From NCBI GenBank assembly GCA_021816845.1, contig JAKAWT010000002.1, positions 33,017-97,016 on the forward strand: a stretch of 64,000 nt of DNA, given 5' to 3'. This DNA comes from a bacterium. Its GTDB lineage: Bacteria; Patescibacteriota; Dojkabacteria; JAKAPS01; JAJZLI01. How positions within the stretch are numbered: the stretch's first letter is position 1; every line of letters begins with the position of its first letter. The notes under the pieces are model-generated. The model made no database searches, was not told the origin of the DNA, and saw only the letters and a program-made list of their open reading frames with translations. Both the position numbers and the translations under genes were made by a program. This document shows, piece by piece, positions 18,149 through 46,526 of the stretch.

Positions 18149-18706
18149 ATGGTACTATCTGATGGAGATATATTGAAAGAAATAAAAAAAGGAGAGTTGA
18201 AGATAAAACCATTTAAAAAGGATTCAATACAACCTTCATCTTATGATTTACATATTTCATCTAAATTTTTAATTTTTAAGAACAGTAAAATACCATACAT
18301 TGATGTAAAGGAAGATATGGATAATACTGAACTTGTAGATGTTAAAGGTAAAGGTTTTTTTTTCCTCCATCCTGGTGAATTTGTACTATCTTCTACTTTA
18401 GAGTATATAAGTAATCCAGATTATTTGGTGGCTAGGATTGAGGGTAAATCATCATTAGGAAGGATTGGACTTATTATACACGCAACAGCAGGATTTGTTG
18501 ATCCAGGATTCAGAGGAACGTTAACTCTAGAAATGACAAATTTAATCAACACACCTATAAAAATATATGTTGGAATGAAAATAGCTCAATTAGCATTTTT
18601 TACTATGACTTCCCCTTCCAAAAAATCCTATGGAGAGTATAATAATAAATATAACAATCAAAAAGATCCAACAAAAAGCCATTATTTTAAAAATTTTAGT
18701 AAATAA
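18149..18706 (+). CDS. dcd: dCTP deaminase
   Basis: SSYDLHI and AGFVDPGFRGTLTLEMTN. 185 aa. Confidence 0.8.
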   Translation: MVLSDGDILKEIKKGELKIKPFKKDSIQPSSYDLHISSKFLIFKNSKIPYIDVKEDMDNTELVDVKGKGFFFLHPGEFVLSSTLEYISNPDYLVARIEGKSSLGRIGLIIHATAGFVDPGFRGTLTLEMTNLINTPIKIYVGMKIAQLAFFTMTSPSKKSYGEYNNKYNNQKDPTKSHYFKNFSK

Positions 18707-18714
18707 TAAATAAA

Positions 18715-19944
18715 GTGAAGGATAAAGAAGTAGAAGGCCTTATTCTTAAGGAGGGTAAAAGACAAGATAGTGTTATAGAGCTTATTGCTTCTGAGAATTA
18801 TGTATCTAAAGATGTCATGGAGGCACAAGGTTCAATACTGACCAATAAATACGCTGAAGGGTATCCTGGTTCTAGATATTATGGTGGTTGTTCAATTGTA
18901 GATGAAATAGAAAATATAGCAATTTCCAGGGCCAAAGACCTATTTAAAGTATCGTTTGTTAATGTTCAACCAAATAGTGGATCAGGAGCAAATCTAGCGG
19001 CATATTTTGCTCTTTTAAAGCCTAAAGATAAAATACTAGGTATGAGACTTAAAGATGGAGGTCATCTTACACACGGATCTCCCGTAAATTTTTCAGGAAA
19101 ACTTTTTAATTTCTCTTTTTATGGGGTTGCATCTTCTGGTTATATAGATTATGATGCAATCTTAAGGATAGCCCAAGATATTAAACCTAAAATGATTGTA
19201 TGTGGAGCATCTGCATACTCGAGGGCTATAGATTTTGCAAAATTTAGGGATATAGCAAATAGTGTTAATGCATATCTTTTTGCTGATATATCACATATTG
19301 CAGGTTTGGTTGTGACAGGTTTACATCAGTCACCTGTAGATTACGCTGATATTATATCTACTACTACACATAAAACCTTGCGTGGACCTAGAAGTGCCAT
19401 TTTAATGACTAACAAAGAATCCATATTTAATCTACTTCAAAAATCTGTTTTTCCTGGATTTGGAGGAGGACCAATGATTCATACTATTGCTGCTAAAGCA
19501 GTTGCATTTAGAGAAGCATCTCTACCATCATTTTTAAAATATCAAGAACAAGTACTTTTAAATTCCAAATATCTTGTAAATGCAATGTTAAATAGAGGAT
19601 TTAAAATAGTTTCAGATGGTACAGATAATCATATGTTTATAGTAGATCTCTCTAATTTTAATATTACAGGTAATGAAGTTCAAGATTTGTTAGATTCAGT
19701 CAACATTGCTGTTTCTAAATCTACTATACCAATGGACAGTAAAGGACCAAATATTGCAAGTGGTATAAGAATAGGCACTCCTGCTATAACATCGCGTTCT
19801 ATGAGAGAAAGAGAAATGGAAAAAATAGCTGATTTCATTAATGAATCAATAAGAAATAGAGAGGATATAAAAACACTCGGTAAAATAAAGGATAGTGTTA
19901 TAAAATTAACTAATGAATTCCCAATATTAGATCACTATGAATAA
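18715..19944 (+). CDS. glyA: Serine hydroxymethyltransferase (GTG start)
   Basis: LIASENYVSKDVMEAQGS and the PLP region TTTHKTLRGPR. 409 aa. Confidence 0.92.
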   Translation: MKDKEVEGLILKEGKRQDSVIELIASENYVSKDVMEAQGSILTNKYAEGYPGSRYYGGCSIVDEIENIAISRAKDLFKVSFVNVQPNSGSGANLAAYFALLKPKDKILGMRLKDGGHLTHGSPVNFSGKLFNFSFYGVASSGYIDYDAILRIAQDIKPKMIVCGASAYSRAIDFAKFRDIANSVNAYLFADISHIAGLVVTGLHQSPVDYADIISTTTHKTLRGPRSAILMTNKESIFNLLQKSVFPGFGGGPMIHTIAAKAVAFREASLPSFLKYQEQVLLNSKYLVNAMLNRGFKIVSDGTDNHMFIVDLSNFNITGNEVQDLLDSVNIAVSKSTIPMDSKGPNIASGIRIGTPAITSRSMREREMEKIADFINESIRNREDIKTLGKIKDSVIKLTNEFPILDHYE

Positions 19945-20752
19945 TAAAATCTTTGATGGAAAAGTTGAATCTTTAAGTATAAAAGAAGAAATAAGAGGTT
20001 ATATTAATAGTAATAATATATCTCCTACACTGGGGATAATACAGGTTGGAGATGATAAGCTATCAAATATATTTATTAGAGAGAAAATAAAATTTGCACA
20101 AGATGTTGGTGTAAAAATTGTTTATCATAAATTTGAAAAAGGTTACAATAAACTTTTAGACGCAATTAATCAGTTTAATAATGATATTAAGATAGATGCA
20201 TTCATAGTACAATTACCATTAGTAGGACTAAGTGACAATACTGTTCTTGATAATATATCTCCAAACAAAGACATAGACTGTTTAACATCAATAAATTATA
20301 ATAAACTTATACTTGGTGAATCCCTATTCTACCCAGGTGTTTATTCTGCATTTTTATACATTTTTAAAAAATGTAAATTACCAAAATCATCACATATTTT
20401 AGTCATAGGTTCAGGATTTGTGGGTTTACCTATTTCTAATTATTTAGTACGTAATAAATATAATGTTACAGTACTTGATAGATATGCCAAACAAAATGAT
20501 ATATCCAAATTTTCAAAATTATCGGATATGATAGTATTTACAGCTGGGGTATCAAATGTAATTAGAAAAGATGATGTAAAAGAAGGATCTTTCCTTATAA
20601 ACATAGGTCAAAGTGCAAATTTCGATGGAAGTATATCTGGAGGTATTGATAATAACGCAATATCTAAATCTCGCTTTTTTGTCCCATCCAAAGGAGGGAT
20701 AGGCCCTTTAACAGTTGCAATGTTATTCAAAAATTTATGTAATATTTTTTAG
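19937..20752 (+). CDS. folD: Bifunctional methylenetetrahydrofolate dehydrogenase/cyclohydrolase
   Basis: FDGKVESLSIKEEIRGYI and PSKGGIGPLTVAMLFKNL. The 3' ends of folD and murG overlap by 18 bp. Confidence 0.88.
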   Translation: MNNKIFDGKVESLSIKEEIRGYINSNNISPTLGIIQVGDDKLSNIFIREKIKFAQDVGVKIVYHKFEKGYNKLLDAINQFNNDIKIDAFIVQLPLVGLSDNTVLDNISPNKDIDCLTSINYNKLILGESLFYPGVYSAFLYIFKKCKLPKSSHILVIGSGFVGLPISNYLVRNKYNVTVLDRYAKQNDISKFSKLSDMIVFTAGVSNVIRKDDVKEGSFLINIGQSANFDGSISGGIDNNAISKSRFFVPSKGGIGPLTVAMLFKNLCNIF

Positions 20753-21853
20753 AATTGTCTGTATTATTATTTTACTTGCATTTTTTGGTAAATCTATTTT
20801 TTTTGTATTTTCCCTCTCCTGTAATTTTTTAAGCTCTACATTTAGTGTACTAAAAGATAATAATGATTCACTTATTATAGATATAGTATCAGAATATTTT
20901 CTTGCTATTTTTGCATTTTCATATTGCTCTCCAAAAGAACTTGACGTTATAGGTATTAATATGGCTTTTTTATTAAGGACTAATATCTCGTAAACAGTAT
21001 TAGCCCCTGCTCTACTGACTATTATGTCAGCCTTTTTAAAGACCTCTCCTATTTCATCGCCCCATATACCACGGCGTATTATATATCTTGCTTTTAAAAT
21101 CGCAGGTAGAGTCTCTCTTAAAATCGTAGCTTTTTTGTAGTCATCAAATATTGTGTTAGATCCAGTTTGGTGAATTATATTATATTGTTTTGATAACTTT
21201 TTTATATTTTTAAATACTATTTGGTTTATGATATGCGATCCTTGATTCCCACCTGTTATATATAACACAGGGAGATTTTTATTGAATTTAAAATTGTCAG
21301 TTTTAGATTTAAATATCTCTTCTCTTAAAATATTCCCCGTAAATATTATATTCTTATCTCTAATGCTTATTTTTTTAAAATATTTTTCTGTATCTTTCCA
21401 AGTTGTAAATATTGTATTTGAAAAAATTGAAGTTATCCTCGATGCCAAACCTGGGATTGAAGCTTGTTCATGGGTAAATACTTTTATCCTGAAAATACCA
21501 CCCCAGAAAACTATTGGTACAGATACATATGATCCAAAGGAAATTATCATTTCTGGCCTATATTTCACTATATAATATAATGCTTGAAAAAAACCTATTG
21601 GAATTTTCAAAAATGATATTATCCCTTTCACTGATAAAAACCTATATAACTTTCCAGTATTTAATGGCAAGAATTTTATATTATTTTTTTGTGCAAATTG
21701 ATATTCTTGAGACAGTGATTTATCAAATAATATTGTGTGTTTAATACCTACAAAGAATATATCCAGATTTTTTTTATTTTTGATACCATCATATATAGCT
21801 TGGGCTGGTGTTAAATGTCCTCCTATTAAAAAGATGGTATTTTTTCTTCTCAT
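20735..21853 (-). CDS. murG: MurG-like N-acetylglucosaminyl transferase (lipid II synthesis)
   Basis: FLIGGHLTPAQAI, YITGGNQGSHIINQ, AILIPITSSSFGEQYENAK. Adjacent to ftsW. Confidence 0.78.
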   Translation of the reverse strand: MRRKNTIFLIGGHLTPAQAIYDGIKNKKNLDIFFVGIKHTILFDKSLSQEYQFAQKNNIKFLPLNTGKLYRFLSVKGIISFLKIPIGFFQALYYIVKYRPEMIISFGSYVSVPIVFWGGIFRIKVFTHEQASIPGLASRITSIFSNTIFTTWKDTEKYFKKISIRDKNIIFTGNILREEIFKSKTDNFKFNKNLPVLYITGGNQGSHIINQIVFKNIKKLSKQYNIIHQTGSNTIFDDYKKATILRETLPAILKARYIIRRGIWGDEIGEVFKKADIIVSRAGANTVYEILVLNKKAILIPITSSSFGEQYENAKIARKYSDTISIISESLLSFSTLNVELKKLQERENTKKIDLPKNASKIIIQTILKNIT

Positions 21854-32031: not shown

Positions 32032-34584
32032 ATGCAAGATACAGAAGATATTGATACACCTGCAATGATTGAATATTATAAGATAAAGGAAGATAATCCT
32101 GGGACTATCATACTATTTCGTATGGGAGATTTTTATGAAATATTTGGGGAAGATGCCAAGATTATATCGAAAATATTAAATATTACACTTACATCAAGAG
32201 ATAAGAATAAAAAAACACCCATGGCAGGATTTCCTTATCATGTTCTAGACTCTTATATACCAAAAATGATGGAAAAAGGGTTAAGAGTTGCAATATGTGA
32301 GCAGATAGAAGAAACCACAGAAAATTCAAAAAAGAGAATCATACGAAGGGAAGTTGTTAGGATAATAACTCCCGGAACCAATATTAGTGTATCTGACGAC
32401 AATACAATATCAAATAATTATATATATTCTATATACCCTGAAGGTAAAAATGTTTTTTCTTCATCATTTCTTGATTTCGTATCTGGTAAATTTTATATAT
32501 TAGATCTTATGGATGAAAAATCTTTAAAATCTTTTATGGCTACTATTAATCCCAAAGAGGTACTTGTTCCTGAAGATATTTTTATTCCTATAGATTTTAA
32601 ACAAACTCAATACAACTATTTTAAAAAGGATGCTCTATATGATCATTTCAATCTTGATACTTTGAAAGGATTTGGTATAGATAATAGTCATTTATCACTA
32701 AAACCCGCAGGGGCAATTATGCATTATGTAGAAAATACCCAGAAAGGTACTTTAGATCATATTAAAACCTTAATTCATTTCAAATCAAAAGATTTCATGA
32801 TACTTGATGATACAACGATTAGAAGTCTTGAGATAGTAGAAAATTTAAAAGATAAATCCTACAAAGGTTCTCTGTTTGAAATATGTAATATGACTTCCAC
32901 AGCAATGGGTGCTAGAAAACTATCTTTTTTTCTCACTCATCCATTAATGGATCCAGCACTAATAGAGAGAAGATATGAAGGAGTCTCCGAGCTTATAGAT
33001 TTAAATATATATGAAGAAATATCAAATATACTTTCAAATATGCACGATATAGAAAGGATATCTGCCAGAATAGGTACAACCTCCATAAATCCAAGGGATA
33101 TGATATCCATTATGCAGTCAATTGATATATCACGTAATCTAATTGAATATTTAAAAAATGTCAAAAGTGAAATATTAATAGAAATATTAAATGTAGTAAA
33201 TATATATAATAATCAAAGTTTAAATGATCTCTATGATTTAATATATAAAAATATTGTGGATTATCCTCCAATAAATATAAAGGATGGTGGATTTATAAAA
33301 GAGGGAGTAAATGAACAACTTGATAAGTATAGAAAAATAATACAAGATGGAAAATCGTGGATAATATCTTTCCAAAAGGAAGAACAAGAGAGACTTAAAA
33401 TACCTTCTTTAAAGGTACATTTTAACAAAATCTTTGGATACTATATTGAAATATCGAATACAAACATTGATAAAATTCCTGAAGATTATATACGGAAACA
33501 GACTTTAAAAGGTGTAGAGAGATACATATCCTTAAAACTTAAAGAATATGAAGATATGGTTATAAATTCTCAGGCAAGAGCATTGTTTCTAGAGAACAAT
33601 ATCCTACAGGATATAAAGATCAGGATTAAAGATTTTATTCCAGTTATACAATCTTTATCTGATAATATAAGTACTCTAGATGTACTTACTTCATTTGCTA
33701 AATCAAGTAGATATTTAAATTTTATAAGACCTACGATTAATAAAGATAGTAAAGAATTGGAAATCAGGAAAGGTAGACACCCAGTTGTTGAATCTTTTAT
33801 AGCACCTGATCCATATATACCCAATGATATTATTCTTGGAAAGGAGAACAATATATTACTTATATCAGGACCAAATATGTCTGGAAAAAGTAGTATATTA
33901 AGACAAACTGCACTAATAGTAATTCTTGCTCAATCAGGATCTTTTGTACCTGCAGAAAAAGCTAAAATCCCAATAGTTGATAGAATATTTACTAGAGTTG
34001 GAGCATCAGATAATTTGTCTGGAGGAGAAAGTACATTTATGGTAGAAATGCTTGAATCTGCTAACATCTTAAATAATGCAACAGAGAGAAGTTTAATAAT
34101 ACTTGATGAAGTTGGAAGGGGTACTTCAACATATGATGGTGTTGCAATAGCATGGGCAATTATAGAATATATACATGACGAGATAGGTTCCAATACGCTA
34201 TTCGCTACTCATTATAATGAATTGTTAGTCTTAGAAGAAATACTACCAAGAGTTTTTAACATGCACGTGAAGGTTGTTGAAAAAAATAAAAAAGTAGTTT
34301 TCTTACGTGTTTTAGAGAAAGGAGGTACTGATAAAAGCTATGGTGTACATGTTGCATCTATTGCTGGATTACCAAGTAGTGTGATACATAGAGCATATGA
34401 ATTGTTATCTGATTTTGAACAAAATAAAACAAAATATAAAAAGAAGTTATTTGAGCAAAGCATATTTACTGCCCCTCTAGAAGAAAGTTTAATTGAAAAA
34501 GAATTAAAAGCTATTGATATAAATACACTGTCCCCTATTGATGCATTTAATAAATTATTAGAGATTAAAAAAAAGATCAAATAA
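32032..34584 (+). CDS. mutS: DNA mismatch repair protein MutS
   Basis: TPAMIEYYKIKEDNPGTIILFRMGDFYE and Walker A ISGPNMSGKSS; SGGESTFMVEM. Confidence 0.93.
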   Translation: MQDTEDIDTPAMIEYYKIKEDNPGTIILFRMGDFYEIFGEDAKIISKILNITLTSRDKNKKTPMAGFPYHVLDSYIPKMMEKGLRVAICEQIEETTENSKKRIIRREVVRIITPGTNISVSDDNTISNNYIYSIYPEGKNVFSSSFLDFVSGKFYILDLMDEKSLKSFMATINPKEVLVPEDIFIPIDFKQTQYNYFKKDALYDHFNLDTLKGFGIDNSHLSLKPAGAIMHYVENTQKGTLDHIKTLIHFKSKDFMILDDTTIRSLEIVENLKDKSYKGSLFEICNMTSTAMGARKLSFFLTHPLMDPALIERRYEGVSELIDLNIYEEISNILSNMHDIERISARIGTTSINPRDMISIMQSIDISRNLIEYLKNVKSEILIEILNVVNIYNNQSLNDLYDLIYKNIVDYPPINIKDGGFIKEGVNEQLDKYRKIIQDGKSWIISFQKEEQERLKIPSLKVHFNKIFGYYIEISNTNIDKIPEDYIRKQTLKGVERYISLKLKEYEDMVINSQARALFLENNILQDIKIRIKDFIPVIQSLSDNISTLDVLTSFAKSSRYLNFIRPTINKDSKELEIRKGRHPVVESFIAPDPYIPNDIILGKENNILLISGPNMSGKSSILRQTALIVILAQSGSFVPAEKAKIPIVDRIFTRVGASDNLSGGESTFMVEMLESANILNNATERSLIILDEVGRGTSTYDGVAIAWAIIEYIHDEIGSNTLFATHYNELLVLEEILPRVFNMHVKVVEKNKKVVFLRVLEKGGTDKSYGVHVASIAGLPSSVIHRAYELLSDFEQNKTKYKKKLFEQSIFTAPLEESLIEKELKAIDINTLSPIDAFNKLLEIKKKIK

Positions 34585-34585
34585 A

Positions 34586-35812
34586 ATGATAGAAAGAGAT
34601 ATTCTACTGGAACTTAAACAAGGGTTAGATAATAATAAGACAACTATAGTTTTAGGTTCTCCAAGGGTTGGGAAAACTACTTTACTTGATATGATATCTG
34701 GATATATAAAAAATAAAAGTATAGGGAATTATGTATATATTGATTTTAAAATATATAGGAATGACTATTCAAAATTTCTAGTAGATCTAGATAATAATAC
34801 TAAGAAATTAAAATTGGAAAAAAGTAATAAAATATATCTTTTATTAGATAATTTCAATTTAAATAATCTGGAAAATAAATTGAATTTTGATAATATTTTT
34901 TATAAATGTATTATAACAAGAGGTTTATTTGATGTAGAAAATACAAATAATATTGAAGTTTTAAAATTATATACACTATCTTTTTTAGAATTTGCAAAAT
35001 ATAAAACACATTATCAATACCCTAAGATGAATAATTTTTTCGATATGTATCCAATATTAGCTTTTGATATCTTTAATGAATATTTAAGGTTTGGAGGATA
35101 TCCTGAAGTTGTATTAGAAGAGACAATTGAAGCCAAAGTAAAAGCACTTAAAGATATATATATTCAATCTATAGAGAAATCTAAATTCAAGAATATTTCT
35201 GGATTAGTAGATTTTCTAACATATATTGCAAATAAAGTTGGAAGAAATGTAAATACCGGATTCTTTACTATTGTTAGTGTATTCAAGGCTCAGGATATTA
35301 TAGATTACTCAACCTATTTACAAAAAATAGGAATTATAAAGGAATTATCTGATTTTAAAAATGAATACCATCCAATATATTATTTTACAGATTTAGGATT
35401 ACGTAACTACATATTAAATGAAAATTCAATAGAAAAACTTGATGATGACCATTATATATTCTCTAACTTTGTATTTATTATAATACTTCATATTTTTTCA
35501 AATTATAAAGAAGTTATATCAATAAAATATTTGAGAGGATATCAAAGAGTACGTTCAGAAATTATAGTTATAAGGGAAGATGGCCATGTTATAATAAGAC
35601 CGACAATATGGAATAGATTAGATCATATTAATGATACAATAGTATCATATATGAGCGATAGTAGGTTTAGAAATTTATTTATAGTAACTATAGCTGGATA
35701 TGATGATTTATTTTATGAAGATAAAAAAATTTCTAGAATTCCATACTATGAACTCTTTTATCTAAACCTTTTTTTAAATGATCAAAATACTCCAAGACAA
35801 CATAGCAAATAA
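34586..35812 (+). CDS. COG1373-type AAA+ ATPase with C-terminal DUF4143-like region
   Basis: P-loop LGSPRVGKTTLLD; LYTLSFLEF, matching the L(Y)PLSF.EF signature; YLRFGGYPEV. 408 aa. Confidence 0.6.
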   Translation: MIERDILLELKQGLDNNKTTIVLGSPRVGKTTLLDMISGYIKNKSIGNYVYIDFKIYRNDYSKFLVDLDNNTKKLKLEKSNKIYLLLDNFNLNNLENKLNFDNIFYKCIITRGLFDVENTNNIEVLKLYTLSFLEFAKYKTHYQYPKMNNFFDMYPILAFDIFNEYLRFGGYPEVVLEETIEAKVKALKDIYIQSIEKSKFKNISGLVDFLTYIANKVGRNVNTGFFTIVSVFKAQDIIDYSTYLQKIGIIKELSDFKNEYHPIYYFTDLGLRNYILNENSIEKLDDDHYIFSNFVFIIILHIFSNYKEVISIKYLRGYQRVRSEIIVIREDGHVIIRPTIWNRLDHINDTIVSYMSDSRFRNLFIVTIAGYDDLFYEDKKISRIPYYELFYLNLFLNDQNTPRQHSK

Positions 35813-37484
35813 AATAGCAGCAGGTGAAGTTATTGAGAGGCCTGCTTCTATACTCAAAGAATTATTAGAGAATTCTATTGATTCTGGTGCTCTAAATATT
35901 ACTGTAACAATTAATGATTTAGATATAAGAGTAGATGATGATGGAGAGGGTATGAGTAAAAAAGATCTTGAGTTATCTATATTAAGATTTGCGACTTCTA
36001 AGATTAGAAAGGAATCAGATTTATATAATATACAGACATTTGGATTTAGAGGAGAGGCATTACCCTCAATAGCATCAATATCAAAAATGAAATTAGCATC
36101 AAAGTATAGACAAGCTAGTAATGCATACAAATTAGATGTGGTAGGAGGTAAAGTAATTGATATATCAGAATTCCCTCTGACAGTTGGTACTTCAATAGAT
36201 GTTAAAGATCTTTTCTTTAACACACCTGTAAGATTAAAATTCTTAAAAAGTCAAAATACTGAATTTAAATATATGCTAGATGTATTTGAAAAAGCCGCTT
36301 TATCTAGTCCTTTAATACATTTTAAACTTTTAAGGAATAACAAAATAATATATGATATGTATAAGGAAGACTTAAAAAAAAGATTTGAGCATATAATACC
36401 CAAGAATAATTATCAGTTTATAGATATAGATTTATCTGTATCAGGTGTTGATATTAAAGGATATATATCATCTTTAAACAATACAAGACCAACGAAAGAT
36501 TTATTATATATATATATAAATAAAAGACCAATTTTTAATTCTGTTATTCAAAAGGCTATTATTGATGGATGTGGAAATCTACTTGAAAAGGGCAAATATC
36601 CAATCATTGTGATATTTTTAGATGTCCCTAATGATAGTATCGATGTTAATGTACATCCTAGAAAATTAGAAGTTAGGTTTAAAGATTCTTCCTATATTTT
36701 CAATATTGTAAAAACTGCTGTAAATAAATCAGTGATGGATAAAAAATTTCAGGAATTTATTCCTAAAGGATCTATTACAGAAGGATTAGCTTTTCATGAT
36801 AAAGATTTTCAGTCCAGTAATTATGATATAAACACTAAAGGGAATACATTTAATAGTACAACTCATATACGATCATATTCTTTTTTTAAAGATAATAATT
36901 TTGTATCAAATGATCTTTATAAAATTAATGTTTATCAATTGTATGATAAATTTCTAGTTCTTGAAAAAGATGAAGGCATCGAGATAATAGATCAGCATGC
37001 AGCATCAGAAAGAGTCAGATTTGAGGAAATTAAAAGAAATATGGAAGATAATAATATAGAAAAGCAACAACTCTTAATACCATATTCTATAGAGTTATCT
37101 AAAAAAGCTTTTATTGAGATTAAATCAAAAATTGATATATTAAAATTGATAGGACTGGATATAGAAATATTTGGAGATAATATAATAAATGTTGTTACCA
37201 TACCTATTTTTTTAAAAGATTCCAATATACAAGATATAATTCTTGAGATAATAGATGATATAGAAAATGGATCTAAAAGTTATGAAGATGAAATAAATAT
37301 CTTTATGGCTACGATAGCATGTCATTCAAGTATTAGGTTTGGTGATCATCTTGCTACTAATGAAATGCAAAAATTAGTTGTAGATTTAAGGAGTTGCAAA
37401 TACCCTTTTACATGCCCTCATGGGAGACCAACAACTTTTGAGATTCCAAGGAAAGAATTATATAAAAGATTTAAAAGGAATTGA
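35778..37484 (+). CDS. mutL: DNA mismatch repair protein MutL
   Basis: MIKILQDNIANKIAAGEVIERPASILKELLENSIDSGA. The start overlaps the upstream ATPase gene by 35 nt. TGA stop. Confidence 0.9.
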   Translation: MIKILQDNIANKIAAGEVIERPASILKELLENSIDSGALNITVTINDLDIRVDDDGEGMSKKDLELSILRFATSKIRKESDLYNIQTFGFRGEALPSIASISKMKLASKYRQASNAYKLDVVGGKVIDISEFPLTVGTSIDVKDLFFNTPVRLKFLKSQNTEFKYMLDVFEKAALSSPLIHFKLLRNNKIIYDMYKEDLKKRFEHIIPKNNYQFIDIDLSVSGVDIKGYISSLNNTRPTKDLLYIYINKRPIFNSVIQKAIIDGCGNLLEKGKYPIIVIFLDVPNDSIDVNVHPRKLEVRFKDSSYIFNIVKTAVNKSVMDKKFQEFIPKGSITEGLAFHDKDFQSSNYDINTKGNTFNSTTHIRSYSFFKDNNFVSNDLYKINVYQLYDKFLVLEKDEGIEIIDQHAASERVRFEEIKRNMEDNNIEKQQLLIPYSIELSKKAFIEIKSKIDILKLIGLDIEIFGDNIINVVTIPIFLKDSNIQDIILEIIDDIENGSKSYEDEINIFMATIACHSSIRFGDHLATNEMQKLVVDLRSCKYPFTCPHGRPTTFEIPRKELYKRFKRN

Positions 37485-39245
37485 TTATCTCACAGTGACA
37501 CTTTTTGCTAAATTTCTTGGTTTATCAGGGTTGTTTCCTCTTAAGATAGTTAAGTGATAAGCTAATATTTGAATGATTATGGTTGAAACTATCCACCAAC
37601 TACTTTCTTTATATGGGACCAAAAAATAATCATCAAAAATTGGGTCTTCCTTATATGTTATTCCTATAGTGAAAGCACCCCTAGATTTTACTTCTCTTGT
37701 TGCAGATATTATAGATTGATAAGTACTATCTTTAGGAGCAAACAAAATACAAGGTGTATTTTTTTCAATTAAAGCAAGAGCTCCATGTTTTAACTCTCCA
37801 GCATTAAATGCTTCTGCATGTATGTAACTACCCTCTTTAATTTTGAGTGCAGTTTCTAATGCTATAGGGAAACTTTGTCCCTTACCTAAAGAGAATAAAT
37901 GATCATATTTACTTATTTTTCTTGCTATATCAATAAATTTTTTGTGAGAATTCAAAGATAATATATTGTTTATAGTATTTATTGCATTTTCAATATCCTT
38001 TTCACCAGCATTTATATTCTTATTCAGATTATTATAAGTTAATGTTAGTATGCTTAATGTCGCTACAAAGGATTTTGTTGCAATTACAGATCTTTCCACA
38101 CCAGCATTAATAGGTATACATATGTCAGATTTTCTTTGTAGACTAGAGAATATAGAGTTAGTTATTGAGACTATTCTCATATTATTTGATTTTGCTATTC
38201 CTATACAGTCTAGGATATCTAAAGTTTCCCCACTCTGTGAGAATGCTATTAAAAGACTTTCTTTGTGAATGGTTTTTATAAAATATGGGAACTCAGAAGC
38301 TATGAATACTTCACTAGAAATTCCGAGTTTAGTCAACATATATTTAAAATACAAGGCTAAATGATAAGAACTACCTGCACCTATCATATAAATATATTTT
38401 GATTTGTTTATCTCATTAGTTAATATATTTATATCTGATAATGATGTATCTAGAATTAGTTTTAAAACATCAGGCTCTTGTTCTATTTCTTTTAGTAGCC
38501 ATGTTTCGTTGGGTTTTAGAGTGTCTTCTGTATAATCTATTTCAGCCTTAATTTTGTTAGGTATTATTTCTGTCTTTGTAATAGTGTCTATTATCTTAAA
38601 ACCTTTTTTATTAATTTTGACCAATTGATTATTTTCTAGTATTACGAAATTTTTTGAAATTTTAGATAGTGAAGGTAAATCTGATGATAAATATGTACCA
38701 TCATTGTTGCTTGTTACTATTATAGGAGAACCATTTGTAATACCTACTATCTTCTTATATTTTAAAGATAATACTACAAAAGCATTAATCCCAGATATTT
38801 TATTAAACGTGTTAATAACAGCATCTTCTAGGCTTTTACCTAACGATAACTCTTCTTCAATTTCATGTGATAACACTTCAGTATCTGTCTCGGAGATGAA
38901 TACATGCCCCTTTTTTAGAAGCTCAGTTTTTAGTTTTTTAAAATTTTCTATAATACCATTGTGAACAACTGTAATACTTTTAGTACAATCATAATGTGGA
39001 TGAGAGTTGATTTTGGTTATATTACCAGAAGTAGCCCATCTTGTGTGTCCTATGCCTATATGACTATCTTTGAATTCTAAATTTTTTTTTACAGAACCTA
39101 TATCTTTTATATTTTGGATTTTTCCATTCACTACAATAGATATTCCCCAGGAGTCATATCCCCTGTATTCCAACTTTTTTAATCCTTGTAAAATTATATC
39201 TCCAGTACTATTGGATTCTCCTATATATGCATATATCCCACACAT
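37485..39245 (-). CDS. glmS: Glutamine--fructose-6-phosphate aminotransferase
   Basis: MCGIYAYIG N-terminal nucleophile; SIS domains; C-terminal KSVTVR. 586 aa. Confidence 0.92.
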   Translation of the reverse strand: MCGIYAYIGESNSTGDIILQGLKKLEYRGYDSWGISIVVNGKIQNIKDIGSVKKNLEFKDSHIGIGHTRWATSGNITKINSHPHYDCTKSITVVHNGIIENFKKLKTELLKKGHVFISETDTEVLSHEIEEELSLGKSLEDAVINTFNKISGINAFVVLSLKYKKIVGITNGSPIIVTSNNDGTYLSSDLPSLSKISKNFVILENNQLVKINKKGFKIIDTITKTEIIPNKIKAEIDYTEDTLKPNETWLLKEIEQEPDVLKLILDTSLSDINILTNEINKSKYIYMIGAGSSYHLALYFKYMLTKLGISSEVFIASEFPYFIKTIHKESLLIAFSQSGETLDILDCIGIAKSNNMRIVSITNSIFSSLQRKSDICIPINAGVERSVIATKSFVATLSILTLTYNNLNKNINAGEKDIENAINTINNILSLNSHKKFIDIARKISKYDHLFSLGKGQSFPIALETALKIKEGSYIHAEAFNAGELKHGALALIEKNTPCILFAPKDSTYQSIISATREVKSRGAFTIGITYKEDPIFDDYFLVPYKESSWWIVSTIIIQILAYHLTILRGNNPDKPRNLAKSVTVR

Positions 39246-39260
39246 AAACTGATAATAACA

Positions 39261-42098
39261 CTATATATATTTTTTTAAAAATTCTCCTGTATAACTATTT
39301 TTTTCTTTTAGTATATCTCTAATTAAACCTTCAAATATTAAACTTCCGCCATTTTCACCTCCGTCTTTTCCTAGATCTATTATCCAATCAGCCATTTTAA
39401 TAACATCCATATTGTGTTCTATAATGACTACAGAATTACCTTGATCTACAAGTCCATTTATAACTATGAGGAGTTTTTTTATATCATCAAAATGTAGTCC
39501 AGTTGTAGGTTCATCGAGAATATATAGTGTTTTACCAGTAGCTTTCCTTGATAGCTCAGTTGCCAATTTTATTCTTTGAGATTCTCCTCCAGAAAGTGTT
39601 GTTGCAGGCTGCCCCAATTTCATATAACCTAATCCAACACTATTGAGTGTTTCCAATTTTACTTTTATAGAATGTATATTATCAAAAAATGATATTCCTT
39701 CACTTATAGTCATATCTAATATTTCTGCTATATTTTTACCTTTATATGTTATTGATAATGCCTCTTTGTTGTATCTTTTACCTTTACATATATCACATGT
39801 AACATATACATCAGGGAGAAATTGCATCTCTATCTTTATAATGCCATCTCCTTTACAATTCTCACATCTTCCACCCTTAACATTAAAACTAAATCTTCCC
39901 GCTTTGTATCCTCTTATTTTGGATTCTTTGGTTTTTGAGAATATATCTCTTATAATTGTGAACATATTAGTGTATGTAGCAGGGTTTGATCTTGGTGTTC
40001 TGCCAATTGGAGATTGATCAATATCAATAACTTTGTTTATCTTCTCTATACCTGTAATATTTTCATGCTCACCTACTTCTTTTTTAGTATGATAGATTAC
40101 ATTAGATAAATATGGATATAAAATATCATTTATAAGAGTACTCTTTCCTGACCCAGATACTCCAGTCACTATTGTTAAAGCACCCAAAGGGATTTTTACT
40201 GTTATATTTTTTAGATTATGTTCTCTAGCTCCTTCAATTGTTATAAAATCTGATATAGCTCTACGTTTTTTAGGGGTTTCAATTTTTCTTGTACCATTCA
40301 AATATTCTCCAGTTATTGAATTTATATCGTTTTTAATCTCATCATAACTACCTTTGGATATCACTTCACCACCAACTATCCCAGCTCCTTTACCCATATC
40401 TATTATAAAATCAGCATTCTCCATTGTTTCCTTATCATGTTCAACTACGATTACACTATTACCTAAATCACGTAAATCTTTAAGAGTAGATATCAATTTT
40501 AAATTATCTTTTTGATGAAGACCAATTGAAGGCTCATCAAGTACATATAAGATTCCAGATAATCTTGATCCAATCTGAGATGCTAGTCTTATTCTTTGAG
40601 CTTCTCCACCTGCTAGTGTTCTTGATGAACGTGATAAGGATAGGTATCCTACTCCAACTGAAGAAAGAAATTTTATTCTTGCTTCTATTTCTTGAAAGAT
40701 CTGTTTGGATATGATTTTCTTATTTTTATCTAAGTTTTTTTTACTACTATCTAGCCATTGTAGAAAATTATCAATAGCTACCTGGCTTACTATATCTATA
40801 GATTTATTATTTATTCTTACATTTCTAGCATACTTGTTTAATCTAGAACCATTACAAAGATTACAAATTTTTTCTATCATATACTCTTCAATCTCTCTTT
40901 TTTTCTGATCAGATCCATTTTCATATTTATCTTTTAGATACTCTATAATTCCATGAAATTCTACATTATATTTTCTTCTACTTTTAAATTTTGGCTTATA
41001 TGATATCTCATATTTCGTATTTCCTGTACCATAAAATAATATATTTTTTTCTCTCTCTGTGTATTTAGAAAATACTGTTGTTAAGGGTATGTTTTCTGCT
41101 ATTGATACTTCTTCTAGTATTTTAATTATCCAAGAGTTTTCATAATTTGTTATTTCATGAGTCATGGGATATATTGCACCTTCCATTATAGTAAGGTTAG
41201 GGTTATATATGCTATTTAAATCTATAATATTTAGAGTCCCTAGTCCCCCACATTGCTCACATGCTCCATAAGGAGAGTTAAAAGAAAATAGATTTGGCTG
41301 AATTTCAGGAATTGCCAAACCACACTTTGGACAAGATAAGTTTTCAGAAAATAAAGTATCCTTATCCTCATCTATATTATTTATTATAACTTCACCTTCA
41401 GATAGATTTACTGCATTCTCAATAGATTCAAAAATTCTTGTTTTAGTTTCTTTACTATCACTATCATCACTTTTTATCACTACTCTATCTATAACAAGTT
41501 CTATGTTATGAATTTTATACCTTGATAATTCTATTTCTTCATCTAAGGAGATAAGTTTTCCATCAATTCTTGCTCTCTGATAACCTTTTTTAAAAAGTGA
41601 TAACAATAATTCTTTATATTCCCCCTTTTTATTTTTAATAATGGGAGCTAATATTAGAAGTTTTTTATCTTTAATTGTCCATACTGTGTTTACTATTTGC
41701 TCAATTGTTTGACTTTCAATCTTTACATTGCAGTCTGGGCAATAAGGTATACCTATTTTTGAATATAATAATCTTAGATAATCATATATCTCTGTTATGG
41801 TACCTACAGTAGATCTTGGATTTCTACTTGCAGTTTTTTGGTCTATTGAAATTGCAGGGGAAAGACCATCTATATATTCTACATCAGGCTTCTCCATTAC
41901 TCCCAGGAATTGTCTTGCATATGATGATAGAGATTCAACATATCTCCTTTGTCCTTCTGCATATATAGTATCAAATGCTAAAGATGACTTTCCTGATCCA
42001 GAAACTCCCGTAATAACAACAAGTTTTCCTTTAGGTATATCAACATCAACATTCTTTAAATTATGTTCTTTAGCACCTTTTATTATTATTTTATCCAT
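39261..42098 (-). CDS. uvrA: Excinuclease ABC subunit A
   Basis: Two ABC modules ([28 protein letters not shown]; [13 protein letters not shown]). 945 aa. Confidence 0.93.
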
Positions 42099-42223
42099 AA
42101 ATGAGAATCAAATATTTTAGGCTACACAAATCTAGTAAATTCCAATCCACTGATTTGAGTCCCACCTATTCTATCACAAAGTACCATGTCTATTCCATTT
42201 TCATTACTATATCAGTCTGTATA

Positions 42224-43399
42224 TCAATTCATCCAATACATTTTAGACGTTGAATCTAAAGTACTTCCACGCGTAACGTGTTGTAAATCTGAAAAATTTA
42301 GATTATTTTTTTTATTATTTATGGTCACTCTTACTACAGCAATATCAAAAGAGTTATTAGTGAGGGTCATAAAAGCAAGATTATTCCCTGATGGAGACCA
42401 TGTAGGATGAGATTCTATCCCAACGTAAACAGTTTGTAAGGTTTTTTTATAAGTATTGAAACTTGAAGTTTCTGTATGTGTTAATATATTCTGTAGATTA
42501 AATTTCATAGTATATAAATTTGCATTATTATTACCCTTTCTTTCTAAAAATGCTAAATATTTACCATTGGGAGATAATCTTGGTTGCATGGCTTCTGATT
42601 TTAATGGGGTAACAGGATATGATTGGCCAGTTGCAAAATCATAAAGCATTATTTGTGAATCTGGCTGGGCAAGATTTGCAGTCCAATATATATAACTCGT
42701 ATATAGAATAAAATTAGGATTGGGCCATGTAACTCCCGCATCCCCTCCTGTATATGGATTAGGATTAACAAGATCAGTTTCTCCATAATAATTGGGGCCT
42801 AATGCTTGGTCTGAAGATAAGTAAGTTTGATTTGCAGATATCTGGAATATTCCCATTCCTGCTACATGTACACCTGTAAAAATCTTCTCCAAGTTTGTTA
42901 GATATGCTATATATTGACCATTTGGAGAATATGTTGGGGTAGCGGACCATAATTCATTATTAATGTTAGGATCTCTCCAATTTACTATCCTAGTAACATT
43001 TGTGCCATTGATATTCATTTGGTATAAATTTGAAAAATTAGTATGGAAGTGTACATAGGCAACTTTCTTGCCATTTTTAGAAATTGCTATATCTGATATA
43101 TCATTTGTATGAGTAATTTGTATTGCTTTCTTACCAGTAATATCCCATAAATTGTTATTCTTTACAAAATACAAATTCCCTTTTAGATTATATGAATTTG
43201 TTAAATTGACAGTTTTAGTATTATATGATTGAAGGGCTTTTGGATTTAGTATCGCTGATAATAAACTAAAGTATCTTATAACTAAATAAACAAAAATAGC
43301 TAGTACCAGAATTAGGATAATATACTTAATCTTAAATTTGTGTTTTTTATCTGTTGTATTTTGTCTATAATTTTTATAATCCATTGTCCTAGTTTCCAT
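42224..43399 (-). CDS. TolB-like beta-propeller (PD40 repeats) protein with N-terminal membrane anchor
   Basis: Repeated SPNGQYIAYL / SPNGKYLAFL / SPSGNNLAFM motifs. N-terminal TM helix. Confidence 0.65.
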   Translation of the reverse strand: METRTMDYKNYRQNTTDKKHKFKIKYIILILVLAIFVYLVIRYFSLLSAILNPKALQSYNTKTVNLTNSYNLKGNLYFVKNNNLWDITGKKAIQITHTNDISDIAISKNGKKVAYVHFHTNFSNLYQMNINGTNVTRIVNWRDPNINNELWSATPTYSPNGQYIAYLTNLEKIFTGVHVAGMGIFQISANQTYLSSDQALGPNYYGETDLVNPNPYTGGDAGVTWPNPNFILYTSYIYWTANLAQPDSQIMLYDFATGQSYPVTPLKSEAMQPRLSPNGKYLAFLERKGNNNANLYTMKFNLQNILTHTETSSFNTYKKTLQTVYVGIESHPTWSPSGNNLAFMTLTNNSFDIAVVRVTINNKKNNLNFSDLQHVTRGSTLDSTSKMYWMN

Positions 43400-44480
43400 A
43401 TAGCTTTGAGAATAAATTATTAATTGCTGGCCAATTAGGTTCTACTATATCCTGTGTAATATACTGACCTAGTGTTGGGTCGTAGTTTGTAGTTGTAGAT
43501 AAAGACGAATACTTAGGAGGTGATAATATTATAGACTGTATTGGTGTTGATCCCATACCTTTAGCCATAGTAGCTAGAGAAATTATATTAGGGATGGACA
43601 TGTCAGTCCTTACATATTGAGTAAGTGAGTTAAATAATGATGGAATTGCAGAGATTGTTTCTGTAGTTTCTAGTTTCTTTTTTAATATAGTTAAAATTTG
43701 CTGTTGTCTTTTTGCTCTACCAAAATCTCCTTGTAAATCACCGTGTCTTGATCTTACATATTCTAGTGTTCTGAAGCCATCCATGTATTGAGGAGCTGGA
43801 GAGATATATAGATTTATTAAGTTATTTATTAATTGTGGATTTCCAGTTAAATCATTAGGGTAAGCCCAATCCATTACTGGATGCGTAGGTGTTACGTATA
43901 CACCTCCAAATTTATTTATAACATTTATAAAACCATTTAATCCAATCCATGCATAATAATCTATCCTTATCCCAAAATATTGTTCAACCACTTGTCTTGT
44001 TAATTGTATACCTCCGATTTCAGATACAGTATCAAATTTAGAGTATCCCCCATTTAGTGTATATCCTGGTATTTTTATCCAAAAATCTCTGGGTATAGAT
44101 ATTAAATAAATCTTTTTTTGGGATGGATTGATGCTTGCTATCATCATAGTTTGGGTAAGTAAATGCTGTGGGTTGAATTTAGCATCTGAGTCAGAACCTA
44201 ATATTAAAATATTAGTAAATGTGTTGCTTTTATCATATTTATATTTTAGTGTTTGTTCCACTTTAGTCTGTTTTATAGTATTCCCTGTTATTTGAAACAA
44301 ATCAGATATTACTTGTACATATCCAGATTTTAAAAGTAGAAGAAAAATTATTAGTATGAATATAACAAAAATAGATAAACAACCTAGCCACCTTCTTTTT
44401 TTCCTTCTTGGAGATTTCATTATTGATGATTGTACATCTTGATGTTGACCATGTTGTAAATTGTCAAAGTCTATTACCAT
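43389..44480 (-). CDS. LytR-CpsA-Psr (LCP) family cell-wall glycopolymer transferase
   Basis: NILILGSDSD, LTQTMMIASINPSQKKIYLISIPRD. N-terminal TM helix. Confidence 0.8.
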   Translation of the reverse strand: MVIDFDNLQHGQHQDVQSSIMKSPRRKKRRWLGCLSIFVIFILIIFLLLLKSGYVQVISDLFQITGNTIKQTKVEQTLKYKYDKSNTFTNILILGSDSDAKFNPQHLLTQTMMIASINPSQKKIYLISIPRDFWIKIPGYTLNGGYSKFDTVSEIGGIQLTRQVVEQYFGIRIDYYAWIGLNGFINVINKFGGVYVTPTHPVMDWAYPNDLTGNPQLINNLINLYISPAPQYMDGFRTLEYVRSRHGDLQGDFGRAKRQQQILTILKKKLETTETISAIPSLFNSLTQYVRTDMSIPNIISLATMAKGMGSTPIQSIILSPPKYSSLSTTTNYDPTLGQYITQDIVEPNWPAINNLFSKLYGN

Positions 44481-44492
44481 GATAATTAAGTC

Positions 44493-46526
44493 TTAAGTCA
44501 GTTTGATTTCTCTAATCTTATCTCTTATTGATGCTGCTTTCTCAAATTCCATGTTATCAGAATATTCTTTCATCTGTTTTTTGAGTTTTGCTATTATATC
44601 TTTTGTGTCTAGATAATTCGAATCTAAATTCTTTGTATCAGAAATTTCTTCTAAATTCAAATCTTTTGCTTTATTATAATTGGATCTTTCAAGTTGTACA
44701 TCTATATTTTTTGTTATACCAAGTGGCTTAAATCCATATTCTTTATTATAACGTAGCTGAATATTTCTTCTTCTGGTAGTTTCTTTTATTGCTTCTGTCA
44801 TAGATTCAGTCATTATATCTGCATACATTATTACATTCCCACTAACATGTCTTGCTACCCTTCCCATCGTCTGAATAAGACTTTGTTTTGATCTTAAAAA
44901 TCCTTCTTTATCAGCATCAAGTATAATCATTAACGATACTTCAGGAAGATCCAATCCTTCCCTTAAAAGATTGATTCCTACCAGTACATCATAAGTTCCC
45001 AATCTTAGGTCTCTTAATATCTCTGTCCTTTCAATTGTATGTATCTCACTGTGAAGATACTGTGTTTTTAGATTATGGTCTTTAAAGTATGTTGATAATT
45101 CTTCAGCCATTTTTTTCGTTAGGGTTATAACAATAGTTCTCTCTTTCTTTTTTATTCTTTTATCTATTTCTTTTTTTATATCATCAATCTGATTCTTCGT
45201 TGGTCGTACCTCTATTGTTGGGTCTACTAATTTTGTTGGCCTTATTATTTGTTCCACAATGCCATTTTTGGGATAGTTTTTTAGATTTTTAGTACTTATA
45301 TTAGATATGTTTATCTCAAAATCATTTGGTGTAGCTGATACATATATTACCTGATTAACTTTTTTCTCAAATTCATCAAACCTTAAAGGTCTGTTATCTA
45401 TTGCTGAAGGTAACCTAAAACCGTAATCTACTAATGTTTTTTTTCTAGCATAATCTCCTTTATACATACCTCTTATTTGTGGTATTGTCATATGACTTTC
45501 ATCTATTATCAATAAATAATCTTTTGGAAAAAAATCTAGGAGTGTGTATGGGGCTGACCCTTGAGCTCTACCTTCTAAATGTCTAGAATAATTTTCAATT
45601 CCTTGGCAATAACCCATTTCTTCTATCATTTCAAGATCAAATTTTACCCTCTGTTCCAATCTTTGGGCTTCTACTAATTGATTATTCTTTTTAAAGTGAT
45701 CAACCCTATCTTTCATTTCTTTTCTTATATTGACAATAGCTTTTTTGATTTTTTCATCTTTGACAAGATAATGTTTGGCTGGATAAATATAAATTTCACT
45801 ATAGTTTTCAATTATAGATCTAGTTAAGGGATCAACAAGTGTGATTGATTCAATTTCGTCGTCAAACATCTCAATCCTTATTATGTTCTCTTCATATGGT
45901 GGAAAAATTTCAATTATATCTCCCTTTACTCTAAAGGTACCTCTCTGGTATTCTATATCATTTCTTGAATATTGAATATTATTTAGAAGAGTAAAAAGCT
46001 CATGCCTTTTTATTTTATCATTCCTTGTGATTAACACTTTTAGCTCATTGTATTCATCTGGAGAACCTAATCCATAAATACATGATACAGACGATACTAT
46101 TATTACATCATTCCTAGATTGTAAAAACTGAGTAGCTTTATTTCTATATTTTTCAATCTCCTCATTTACTCTAGTTTCTTTTTCAATATATATATCTTTT
46201 GTTGGGATATAAGCCTCTGGTTGATAATAATCATAATACGATACAAAATAAGCAACTGCATTATTAGGAAAGTAATTTTTAAATTCTGAAGCTAGTTGTG
46301 CGGCTAGGGTCTTGTTGTGTGCGATTACAAGTGTTGGTTTACCTATGTTTGCTATTACATTAGACATTACAAACGTTTTTCCAGATCCTGTTACACCCAT
46401 TAAAGTTTGATGTTTAGCTCCTTCTTTTAAGCCTAGGGTTAAAGTCTCTATTGCTTGGGGCTGATCCCCTTCAGGTTTATATTTAGATATAAGATTGAAA
46501 TTGTCACCTGATTTTATTGATCCCAT
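44493..46526 (-). CDS. uvrB: Excinuclease ABC subunit B
   Basis: GDQPQAIETL, GVTGSGKTF, C-terminal UvrC-interaction helix EFEKAASIRDKIREIK. Confidence 0.93.
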   Translation of the reverse strand: MGSIKSGDNFNLISKYKPEGDQPQAIETLTLGLKEGAKHQTLMGVTGSGKTFVMSNVIANIGKPTLVIAHNKTLAAQLASEFKNYFPNNAVAYFVSYYDYYQPEAYIPTKDIYIEKETRVNEEIEKYRNKATQFLQSRNDVIIVSSVSCIYGLGSPDEYNELKVLITRNDKIKRHELFTLLNNIQYSRNDIEYQRGTFRVKGDIIEIFPPYEENIIRIEMFDDEIESITLVDPLTRSIIENYSEIYIYPAKHYLVKDEKIKKAIVNIRKEMKDRVDHFKKNNQLVEAQRLEQRVKFDLEMIEEMGYCQGIENYSRHLEGRAQGSAPYTLLDFFPKDYLLIIDESHMTIPQIRGMYKGDYARKKTLVDYGFRLPSAIDNRPLRFDEFEKKVNQVIYVSATPNDFEINISNISTKNLKNYPKNGIVEQIIRPTKLVDPTIEVRPTKNQIDDIKKEIDKRIKKKERTIVITLTKKMAEELSTYFKDHNLKTQYLHSEIHTIERTEILRDLRLGTYDVLVGINLLREGLDLPEVSLMIILDADKEGFLRSKQSLIQTMGRVARHVSGNVIMYADIMTESMTEAIKETTRRRNIQLRYNKEYGFKPLGITKNIDVQLERSNYNKAKDLNLEEISDTKNLDSNYLDTKDIIAKLKKQMKEYSDNMEFEKAASIRDKIREIKLT

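Follow-up and report, generated by a model that had tools for sequence, protein, structure and literature searches.

Between the mismatch-repair genes mutS and mutL of a Patescibacteria genome lies an additional open reading frame (ORF), here called X, which is the subject of this report. The window, meaning the whole stretch of DNA that was analysed, comprises 64,000 nucleotides (nt) of assembly GCA_021816845.1 (contig JAKAWT010000002.1, positions 33,017 to 97,016 of the forward strand), and ORF coordinates are those of its ORF listing. X starts with ATG, occupies 34586..35812 on the + strand and encodes 408 amino acids (aa). A spacer of 1 nt separates the mutS stop codon from this ATG, and the 3' end of X overlaps the 5' end of mutL by 35 nt (35778-35812). 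An initial annotation of this DNA had reported an ORF of 408 aa between mutS and mutL with a 35-nt overlap, and the coordinates bear it out. The unit consists of the following features:

32032..34584, + strand: mutS, the upstream gene, 850 aa; all five MutS Pfam domains are found, with expectation values (E) down to 1e-82
34586..35812, + strand: X, 408 aa; a diverged AAA_14 + DUF4143 protein (COG1373 / PDC-S01-type) and, by comparison with relatives, a clade-specific insertion
35778..37484, + strand: mutL, the downstream gene, 568 aa; Pfam HATPase_c_3, DNA_mis_repair and MutL_C
35778..35812, + strand: the X/mutL overlap, 35 nt; it codes for a disordered, non-family C-terminal tail of X

The mutL start is genuine, as the N-terminus MIKILQDNIANKIAAGEV aligns from residue 1 with the MutL proteins of sister-clade relatives that lack X. 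The overlap arises because X carries a disordered extra tail that supplies those codons: in the alignment the protein runs at least ~14 codons past the usual family end ('...IPxxYL'), and residues 400-408 are disordered in the AlphaFold2 (AF2) model, where their predicted local distance difference test score (pLDDT) is <50. The overlap with mutL is thus real, and no terminator-like site was found within mutS-X-mutL, an absence that is consistent with the co-transcription supposed earlier. A promoter scan gave fewer matches than in shuffled sequence and is uninformative. The lack of a Shine-Dalgarno site is equally uninformative on translational coupling of X and mutL, because such a 4-mer is present at -23 to -4 in only 6 of the 46 window genes. 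Stop/start overlaps are common among the 46 long ORFs of the window, and the organism, a member of the Patescibacteria with ~29% guanine plus cytosine (GC), seems to place little reliance on Shine-Dalgarno-led initiation.

The same arrangement recurs in a small group of relatives. Five contexts of the X clade are available: the window itself, L001 (GCA_027371855.1), L004, L007/L008 (GCA_021809565.1 and GCA_054637875.1, the protein of the latter bearing the NCBI label 'Patescibacteria group bacterium') and L060, a JGI contig identified by its MutL. X is 70-100% identical among them and is present in every context sampled (5/5), with the order mutS-X-mutL and the 35-nt overlap common to all and the 1-nt mutS-X spacer found wherever the upstream end is visible. 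The length of the protein is 406-408 aa in all lineages. Between L001 and the window, X is 70% and MutL 80% identical. Two scans of metagenome contigs confirmed no further orthologues, a weak negative since they also missed L060, which has X. The MutS of two of these contexts has been called 26-39 residues longer at its N-terminus than the 850 aa of the window, with 876 aa in L001 (7330-9999) and 889 aa in L007 (4183-6813). The window mutS ORF cannot be extended upstream, and the longer forms are probably gene-calling artefacts or reflect a lineage difference in start codon.

Outside this clade the two repair genes adjoin one another. In three sister lineages (L009/10, L011/12 and L061), whose MutL is 47-49% identical to that of the window and which share with the X clade the synteny of ileS, YtxH, NTP-transferase, glycosyltransferase, mutS, mutL, uvrA and uvrB, mutS directly overlaps mutL by 4, 8 and 20 nt, respectively, and X is absent. 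In two outgroups (L062 and L063; MutL 37-38% identical, neighbourhoods unrelated) mutL likewise follows immediately after mutS without X. Since sisters and outgroups alike lack X, the adjacency of mutS and mutL without it is ancestral and X is a single, old insertion; the converse, a deletion in the sister clade, is ruled out as L062 and L063 are also without the gene. The insertion was clean. The C-terminus of MutS (...LLEIKKKIK) and the N-terminus of MutL are unchanged with respect to lineages without X, and the C-terminal residues encoded by mutS align with those of the sister clade. The term 'inserted' in the initial annotation is therefore well chosen. By these comparisons the insertion happened once, on the stem branch of a narrow clade of Patescibacteria at roughly genus level, and X has been inherited vertically since.

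The slot on the other side of mutL, between mutL and uvrA, turns over in the same lineages. It holds glmS in the window (37485-39245, - strand) and in L001, glmS is absent from L007/L008/L060, and its place in the sister clade (L009/L011/L061) is taken by a gene for a HAD-family hydrolase. Gene gain and loss thus go on beside the operon on this timescale, with X kept throughout.

Searches of sequence libraries point to one family for X. The earlier assignment to AAA_14 plus DUF4143 holds as regards homology, but the Pfam support is weaker than had been claimed, as both models score below their gathering cut-offs (AAA_14, 25.3 bits against 27; DUF4143, collinear with the AAA_14 match, 21.1 bits against 28.1). 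A match to Pfam nSTAND3 is also weak (20.3 bits against a cut-off of 27.2, E=4.7e-4). The homology is carried by the PADLOC models for PDC-S01, of which PDLC04789 covers residues 1-329 of X with E=1.5e-19 and PDLC04787 gives E=1.8e-18, and by phmmer, which matches X to proteins with PF13173+PF13635 at 1e-28 to 1e-20. Among 5.8 billion clustered proteins there are three close X clusters, with 100, 79 and 71% identity; beyond these, identity to X is <=29%, and all of those proteins carry PF13173+PF13635. In phmmer searches of 1.84 billion representatives only the cluster of X itself falls at <1e-30, the next match being at 7e-22 with 31% identity, and most family alignments to X stop near residue 300-330. 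By these sequence matches X descends from the AAA_14-DUF4143 family (COG1373; the PADLOC candidate defence gene PDC-S01). The gap in the phmmer results and the end of the alignments at ~300-330 place it on an isolated long branch of that family, with no intermediates among the 1.84 billion representatives and with the C-terminal domain as the part most diverged from the family. NCBIfam returned generic P-loop noise only, a PDB sequence search nothing meaningful, and PHROGs no match, so there is no phage affinity by that measure; no paralogue of X was found within the window.

DUF4143/COG1373 appears as a PD-(D/E)XK family of unknown function in the list of Steczkiewicz et al. 2012 (PMC3424549), and structure prediction agrees with that placement for X. 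The AF2 model, made from an alignment of 47 sequences, has a pLDDT of 85 and a predicted template modelling score (pTM) of 0.88. Modelled alone, the C-terminal domain has a pLDDT of 84 and the topology alpha-beta-beta-beta-alpha-beta, a predicted PD-(D/E)xK (restriction-endonuclease) fold, so that the PD-(D/E)xK-like C-terminal region proposed from the letters is present in the domain model. The middle region of the model has the element order H-H-H-beta-beta and is a candidate winged-helix-like domain. X and the AAA_14-DUF4143 proteins are homologous over near their full length at 22-35% identity and share one order of parts: a P-loop nucleoside triphosphatase (NTPase), a helical region with FGGYPEV, a region with YFxDxGLRNY and a C-terminus of PD-(D/E)xK fold.

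The best whole-chain Foldseek matches of X lie with the STAND/ORC-Cdc6 group of AAA+ proteins (CED-4, Apaf-1, Avs3/Avs4, Cdc6/Orc1 and DnaA), at E of 1e-6 to 1e-4, probability 1.0, template modelling scores (TM-scores) of 0.25-0.42 and 10-17% identity. Like the model of X, they combine a P-loop core with a helical lid and a winged-helix-like domain. They function as active NTPases or switches, and a PD-(D/E)xK domain is missing from the C-terminal position that it takes in X. The modelled likeness would be one of general fold class and not of family membership.

Where X departs from its family is in the catalytic residues. For this comparison the four X orthologues were aligned first against 28 members of the family and then against 154 of its sequences, and 110 full-length family representatives were scored for catalytic residues. 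The parts of the protein that matter here are as follows:

34655..34681, + strand: Walker A P-loop, residues 24-32, GSPRVGKTT; kept in all orthologues
34835..34852, + strand: Walker B strand, residues 84-89, YLLLDN; Asp88 is kept
34922..34963, + strand: shortened segment after strand beta-4, residues ~113-126; without the family motif GSSS...LxGR
35186..35431, + strand: middle region, helical/winged-helix-like, residues 201-282; includes the kept signature YYFxDxGLRNY
35432..35770, + strand: C-terminal PD-(D/E)xK-fold domain, residues 283-395; its active site is degenerate

Several family hallmarks are untouched. In the Walker A motif the family and X share G24, G29 and K30 without exception, with T31/T32 nearly invariant. 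The motif FGGYPEV is kept in X at residues 169-175, upstream of the middle region, and G170, G171, Y172, P173, D269, G271 and N274 are likewise invariant across both. Unlike the family, X is without the Walker B Glu, the Gly-Arg pair and three of four nuclease active-site residues. The catalytic Glu of Walker B, found in 28/28 family members and in 102/110 representatives, is Asn in all four X orthologues. Opposite the family Gly-Arg (28/28 in the smaller alignment) X has a gap of 14 columns, and in the larger alignment the Gly and Arg of the family (142 and 145 of 154) face N-N, S-N or N-S. No Arg occurs anywhere in residues 113-126, and the predicted arginine finger/sensor-1 seems to have been lost. 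In the C-terminal domain the residue in nuclease helix alpha-1 is Ser (S293), as against Glu or Gln in 102/110 of the family; the first residue of the E-x-K motif is Arg (R338) in four of four orthologues, as against Glu or Asp in 100/110; and the Lys of that motif (96/110 in the family) is replaced by T340 in three orthologues and retained in one. The nuclease 'D' at position 325 is Glu or Asp in the orthologues and Asp in 105/110 family representatives. The initial annotation had pointed to possible nuclease residues in the C-terminal region; in X they are mostly gone.

The Walker B Glu and all three of the D/E/K residues are present together in 91/110 family representatives (83%), and both the ATPase and the nuclease site are altered in only about six of the 110. 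The doubly degenerate state of X is uncommon in the family, not unique. Read through the established enzymology of AAA+ and PD-(D/E)xK proteins, these losses would leave X a non-catalytic nucleotide binder, which probably binds nucleotide with little or no hydrolysis and does not cleave DNA.

One alternative is that X is still an active stand-alone defence or selfish ATPase-nuclease of PDC-S01 type, which would cleave foreign nucleic acid after ATP-dependent sensing. PDC-S01, a PADLOC candidate for defence, is after all the best library match of X, and a 2026 survey describes it as a fusion of an ATPase with a PD-(D/E)xK domain, frequent in Patescibacteria-like small genomes and fourth among 'defence' calls in prokaryotes (PMC12988326). 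X has also kept Walker A and an acidic residue at the nuclease 'D'. Such activity is nevertheless hard to reconcile with Asn in Walker B, the missing Gly-Arg and R-x-T in place of E-x-K (R-x-K in one orthologue), when 91/110 relatives keep all four of the scored residues. Its setting is a housekeeping operon and not a defence island, its vertical inheritance and host-like codons (below) are unlike those of mobile defence genes, and PDC-S01 is itself unvalidated as a defence system, validation being pending (PMC12988326). We consider a working ATPase-nuclease improbable, and the restriction-like defence offered as one possibility by the initial annotation improbable with it.

Loss of catalytic residues has not been accompanied by loss of constraint. 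Pairwise ratios of nonsynonymous to synonymous substitution (dN/dS; Nei-Gojobori) for X are 0.15-0.30 at synonymous divergences (dS) of 0.2-0.7, compared with 0.10-0.11 for mutS and 0.14-0.16 for mutL. X is therefore slightly more relaxed than mutS and mutL and clearly under purifying selection. The constraint is unevenly spread: the P-loop core is the least constrained part (70% identity, dN/dS 0.33) and the former nuclease domain at the C-terminus the most constrained among the orthologues (86% identity, dN/dS 0.17). The domain most diverged from the family is hence the one most conserved within the clade, the pattern expected if a new, non-catalytic role has been acquired.

These values bear directly on a second alternative, that X is a functionless translated spacer whose frame is open only since translation of mutL needs ribosomes arriving through X. 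A stop/start overlap at mutL is ancestral (the 4, 8 and 20 nt of the sister lineages), and X may simply serve in place of the ORF that used to overlap mutL from upstream. The degenerate catalytic sites, an evolution somewhat faster than that of the neighbours, and a GC content (22.8%) that is the second-lowest among the 46 window genes, which fits weaker constraint, are what a spacer would lead one to expect. A spacer requires an open frame only, and dN/dS near 1 would therefore be expected, and not the 0.15-0.30 of the whole gene or the 0.17 of its C-terminal domain. Nor would it account for the retention of Walker A, FGGYPEV and YYFxDxGLRNY, for a length held at 406-408 aa in all lineages, or for a confidently folded AF2 model. 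This explanation also seems to us unlikely.

Composition gives a mixed answer to whether the gene is atypical for its genome. Codons are not (synonymous codon usage is host-like, with a codon-usage distance of z=-0.67), and GC is low (z=-1.9). Recent horizontal acquisition is ruled out by the host-like codons together with fixation across lineages at dS ~0.6. The idea of a selfish insertion, raised at the outset, accordingly fails if a recent event is meant: X is fixed in every clade member sampled, its codons are host-like and it is under purifying selection.

The position of X naturally raises the possibility of a role in mismatch repair. Both flanking proteins have kept their motifs. MutS has intact GDFYE, Walker A and Walker B motifs, and MutL has its GHKL motif, DQHAASERVRFE, CPHGRP and QQLLIP. 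The MutL endonuclease motif is present as DQHAxxExxxxE; the protein is thus of the endonuclease, MutH-independent type and no MutH-like nuclease is required beside it. A seeming difference in the clamp-binding motif between the MutL proteins of the X clade and the sister clade proved to be an artefact of the pattern used, as the sister clade has QSFLIP/QNFIIP.

The family at large was surveyed at 42 loci among the matches listed, taken from species-representative genomes of many phyla (544 kb in all) and representing distant relatives outside the X clade. Among these 42, mutS lies within 10 kb in 1/42 and mutL in 0/42. The one locus with a nearby mutS among those listed is L024 (10001-10969; mutS 18252-20839), from an Ignavibacteria metagenome-assembled genome, in which the two genes are ~8 kb apart and non-adjacent, a proximity consistent with chance. 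The closest intact relatives of X adjoin instead HepT/MNT, PemK and BrnT toxin-antitoxin genes, DUF3800 and dprA. In L055 (4259-9686) and L057 (2528-5542), for example, intact relatives stand beside nucleotidyltransferase/HepT-type toxin-antitoxin pairs, and that of L055 also beside dprA and a ComM-like Mg-chelatase ATPase; such neighbours fit residence of the family in variable or defence-like regions. The initial annotation was right that members of this architecture occur in variable regions, as intact relatives sit among toxin-antitoxin genes. X differs from them in being fixed in a housekeeping operon.

With mutS near one and mutL near none of the 42 family loci listed, linkage to repair is a property of the X clade and not of the family. 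At the level of the family the findings are thus largely the opposite of what a repair link would predict, namely unrelated loci and no repair linkage, together with nuclease residues mostly gone in X.

A third alternative makes X an exapted accessory of mismatch repair, a nucleotide-gated factor that binds DNA or MutL/MutS and modulates repair. It might load, tether or regulate the MutL endonuclease, and its place in the operon would ensure matched expression. Its position between mutS and mutL is invariant in five contexts, with the 1-nt spacer and the 35-nt overlap, and purifying selection has persisted despite catalytic loss and is strongest in the former nuclease domain, a pattern that neofunctionalisation would be expected to leave. 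X was retained in the L007/L008/L060 lineage, from which glmS has disappeared. Tk-TIP26 (PDB 2czr), to which the C-terminal domain shows its best structural match, was deposited as a TBP-interacting protein and not as a nuclease. Against this stand the missing repair linkage of the family (mutS in 1/42 and mutL in 0/42 of the loci listed) and the fact that the same MutS/MutL pair works without X in the sister clade and the outgroups. No catalytic or clamp-binding motif has been lost from the MutS and MutL of the X clade, in which no obvious compensating change is seen, and entrenchment alone also predicts a retained position. A functional tie of X to MutS/MutL is plausible, and a repair-accessory role of this clade-specific protein possible, the whole of its support being position and retention; we hold the role in its specific form to be a tentative proposal.

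The likeness to Tk-TIP26 concerns the fold of the C-terminal domain only, at 10% identity. Tk-TIP26 belongs to an archaeal transcription context and, unlike X, has no ATPase module. To our knowledge, and going by the title of its PDB entry, it lacks nuclease activity.

MutH, the PD-(D/E)xK endonuclease that nicks DNA in the methyl-directed mismatch repair of E. coli and its relatives, is the classic precedent for the recruitment of a restriction-enzyme-like protein to MutS/MutL. MutH has an intact D...E-x-K and no ATPase module, whereas in X the site is degenerate and a P-loop module precedes it at the N-terminus, and the MutL beside X carries its own endonuclease motif, so that an extra nuclease is unneeded. 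No sequence similarity of X to MutH was detected in searches of Pfam, NCBIfam and PDB.

Two further aspects of the locus deserve description. X is bracketed by an imperfect inverted repeat:

34565..34586 and 35756-35777, no strand: imperfect 22-nt inverted repeat; the A-rich arm ends at the X ATG and its partner ends just before the mutL ATG

The arms are complementary at 18/22 positions (82%) in the window and at 16/22 in the three orthologous loci, and this is the only one of 253 pairs of upstream regions to reach 16. The A-rich arm consists of ancestral mutS sequence. The duplex that the repeat could form as RNA is weak (-8 to -10 kcal/mol, ranking 9th to 72nd of ~1,800 windows) and in no case the best partner. 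Its mismatches are uncompensated, and a conserved long-range RNA stem joining the mutS stop and the mutL start was rejected on these grounds. The repeat is probably compositional, with Lys AAA codons of the MutS tail opposite Phe/Leu TTT/TTA codons of the C-terminus of X, although it may instead be an insertion scar or reflect weak long-range pairing.

The unit is also part of a cluster of repair genes, mutS, (X), mutL, uvrA and uvrB, which extends over ~15 kb (32032-46526) and is syntenic in the clade and its sister clade. The interval between uvrA and uvrB holds a gene for a PD40/Tricorn-like beta-propeller protein and a LytR_cpsA_psr gene. The remaining members of the cluster are:

39261-42098, - strand: uvrA, part of the repair-gene cluster
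44493-46526, - strand: uvrB, part of the repair-gene cluster

Taken together, the comparisons favour, with a probability of roughly 0.55, the reading that X is a fixed, vertically inherited and catalytically degenerate derivative of PDC-S01 type, co-expressed with its neighbours, probably a non-enzymatic binder, and entrenched after an accidental insertion. X was inserted once, at the overlapping junction of the mutS stop and the mutL start in the ancestor of the clade, and would since have been transcribed within a single mutS-X-mutL message. The protein would hold nucleotide without turnover and leave DNA uncut, and its remodelled C-terminal domain may allow it to bind DNA and/or a protein partner in a non-enzymatic manner. 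Its location would be a matter of historical accident followed by entrenchment, as only a precise excision would spare the expression of mutL.

Several points weigh against this. Loss of canonical residues is not proof of loss of activity: Walker B variants of some P-loop proteins in which Asp is changed to Asn hydrolyse slowly, an acidic residue persists at the nuclease 'D' (E/D325) and Lys is found at 340 in one orthologue. The flanking genes have dS of 0.6-0.9, which is near saturation, and with four or five close orthologues only, the analysis of conservation is shallow. Finally, the strict position, the tight packing and the loss of glmS with X kept could mean a real function in repair, in which case accident and entrenchment would be too modest an account.

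Entrenchment of a degenerate derivative could be taken further. A catalytically dead descendant of PDC-S01 type, X may have become, by domestication, a third component of MutS-MutL specific to this lineage, one that uses nucleotide binding and its remodelled former nuclease domain to attach to DNA or MutL. We regard this as doubtful; it would parallel, by analogy, the way in which a relative of restriction enzymes was recruited long ago as MutH.

The claim made here is narrow, as it concerns one genus-level clade and draws on comparative sequence evidence alone. If the conservative reading, of accidental insertion and entrenchment, is true, X is a well-polarised case of a defence-type mobile gene that has become fixed in an operon of an essential pathway in a streamlined genome, and one in which the enzymatic residues have been lost while selection persists. 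It would also call for caution with annotators of the PADLOC type, which would label X 'PDC-S01' though it probably has neither ATPase nor nuclease activity. Were domestication true, X would add a new accessory factor to MutH-independent mismatch repair and show that the restriction fold has been recruited to MutS/MutL a second time, independently.

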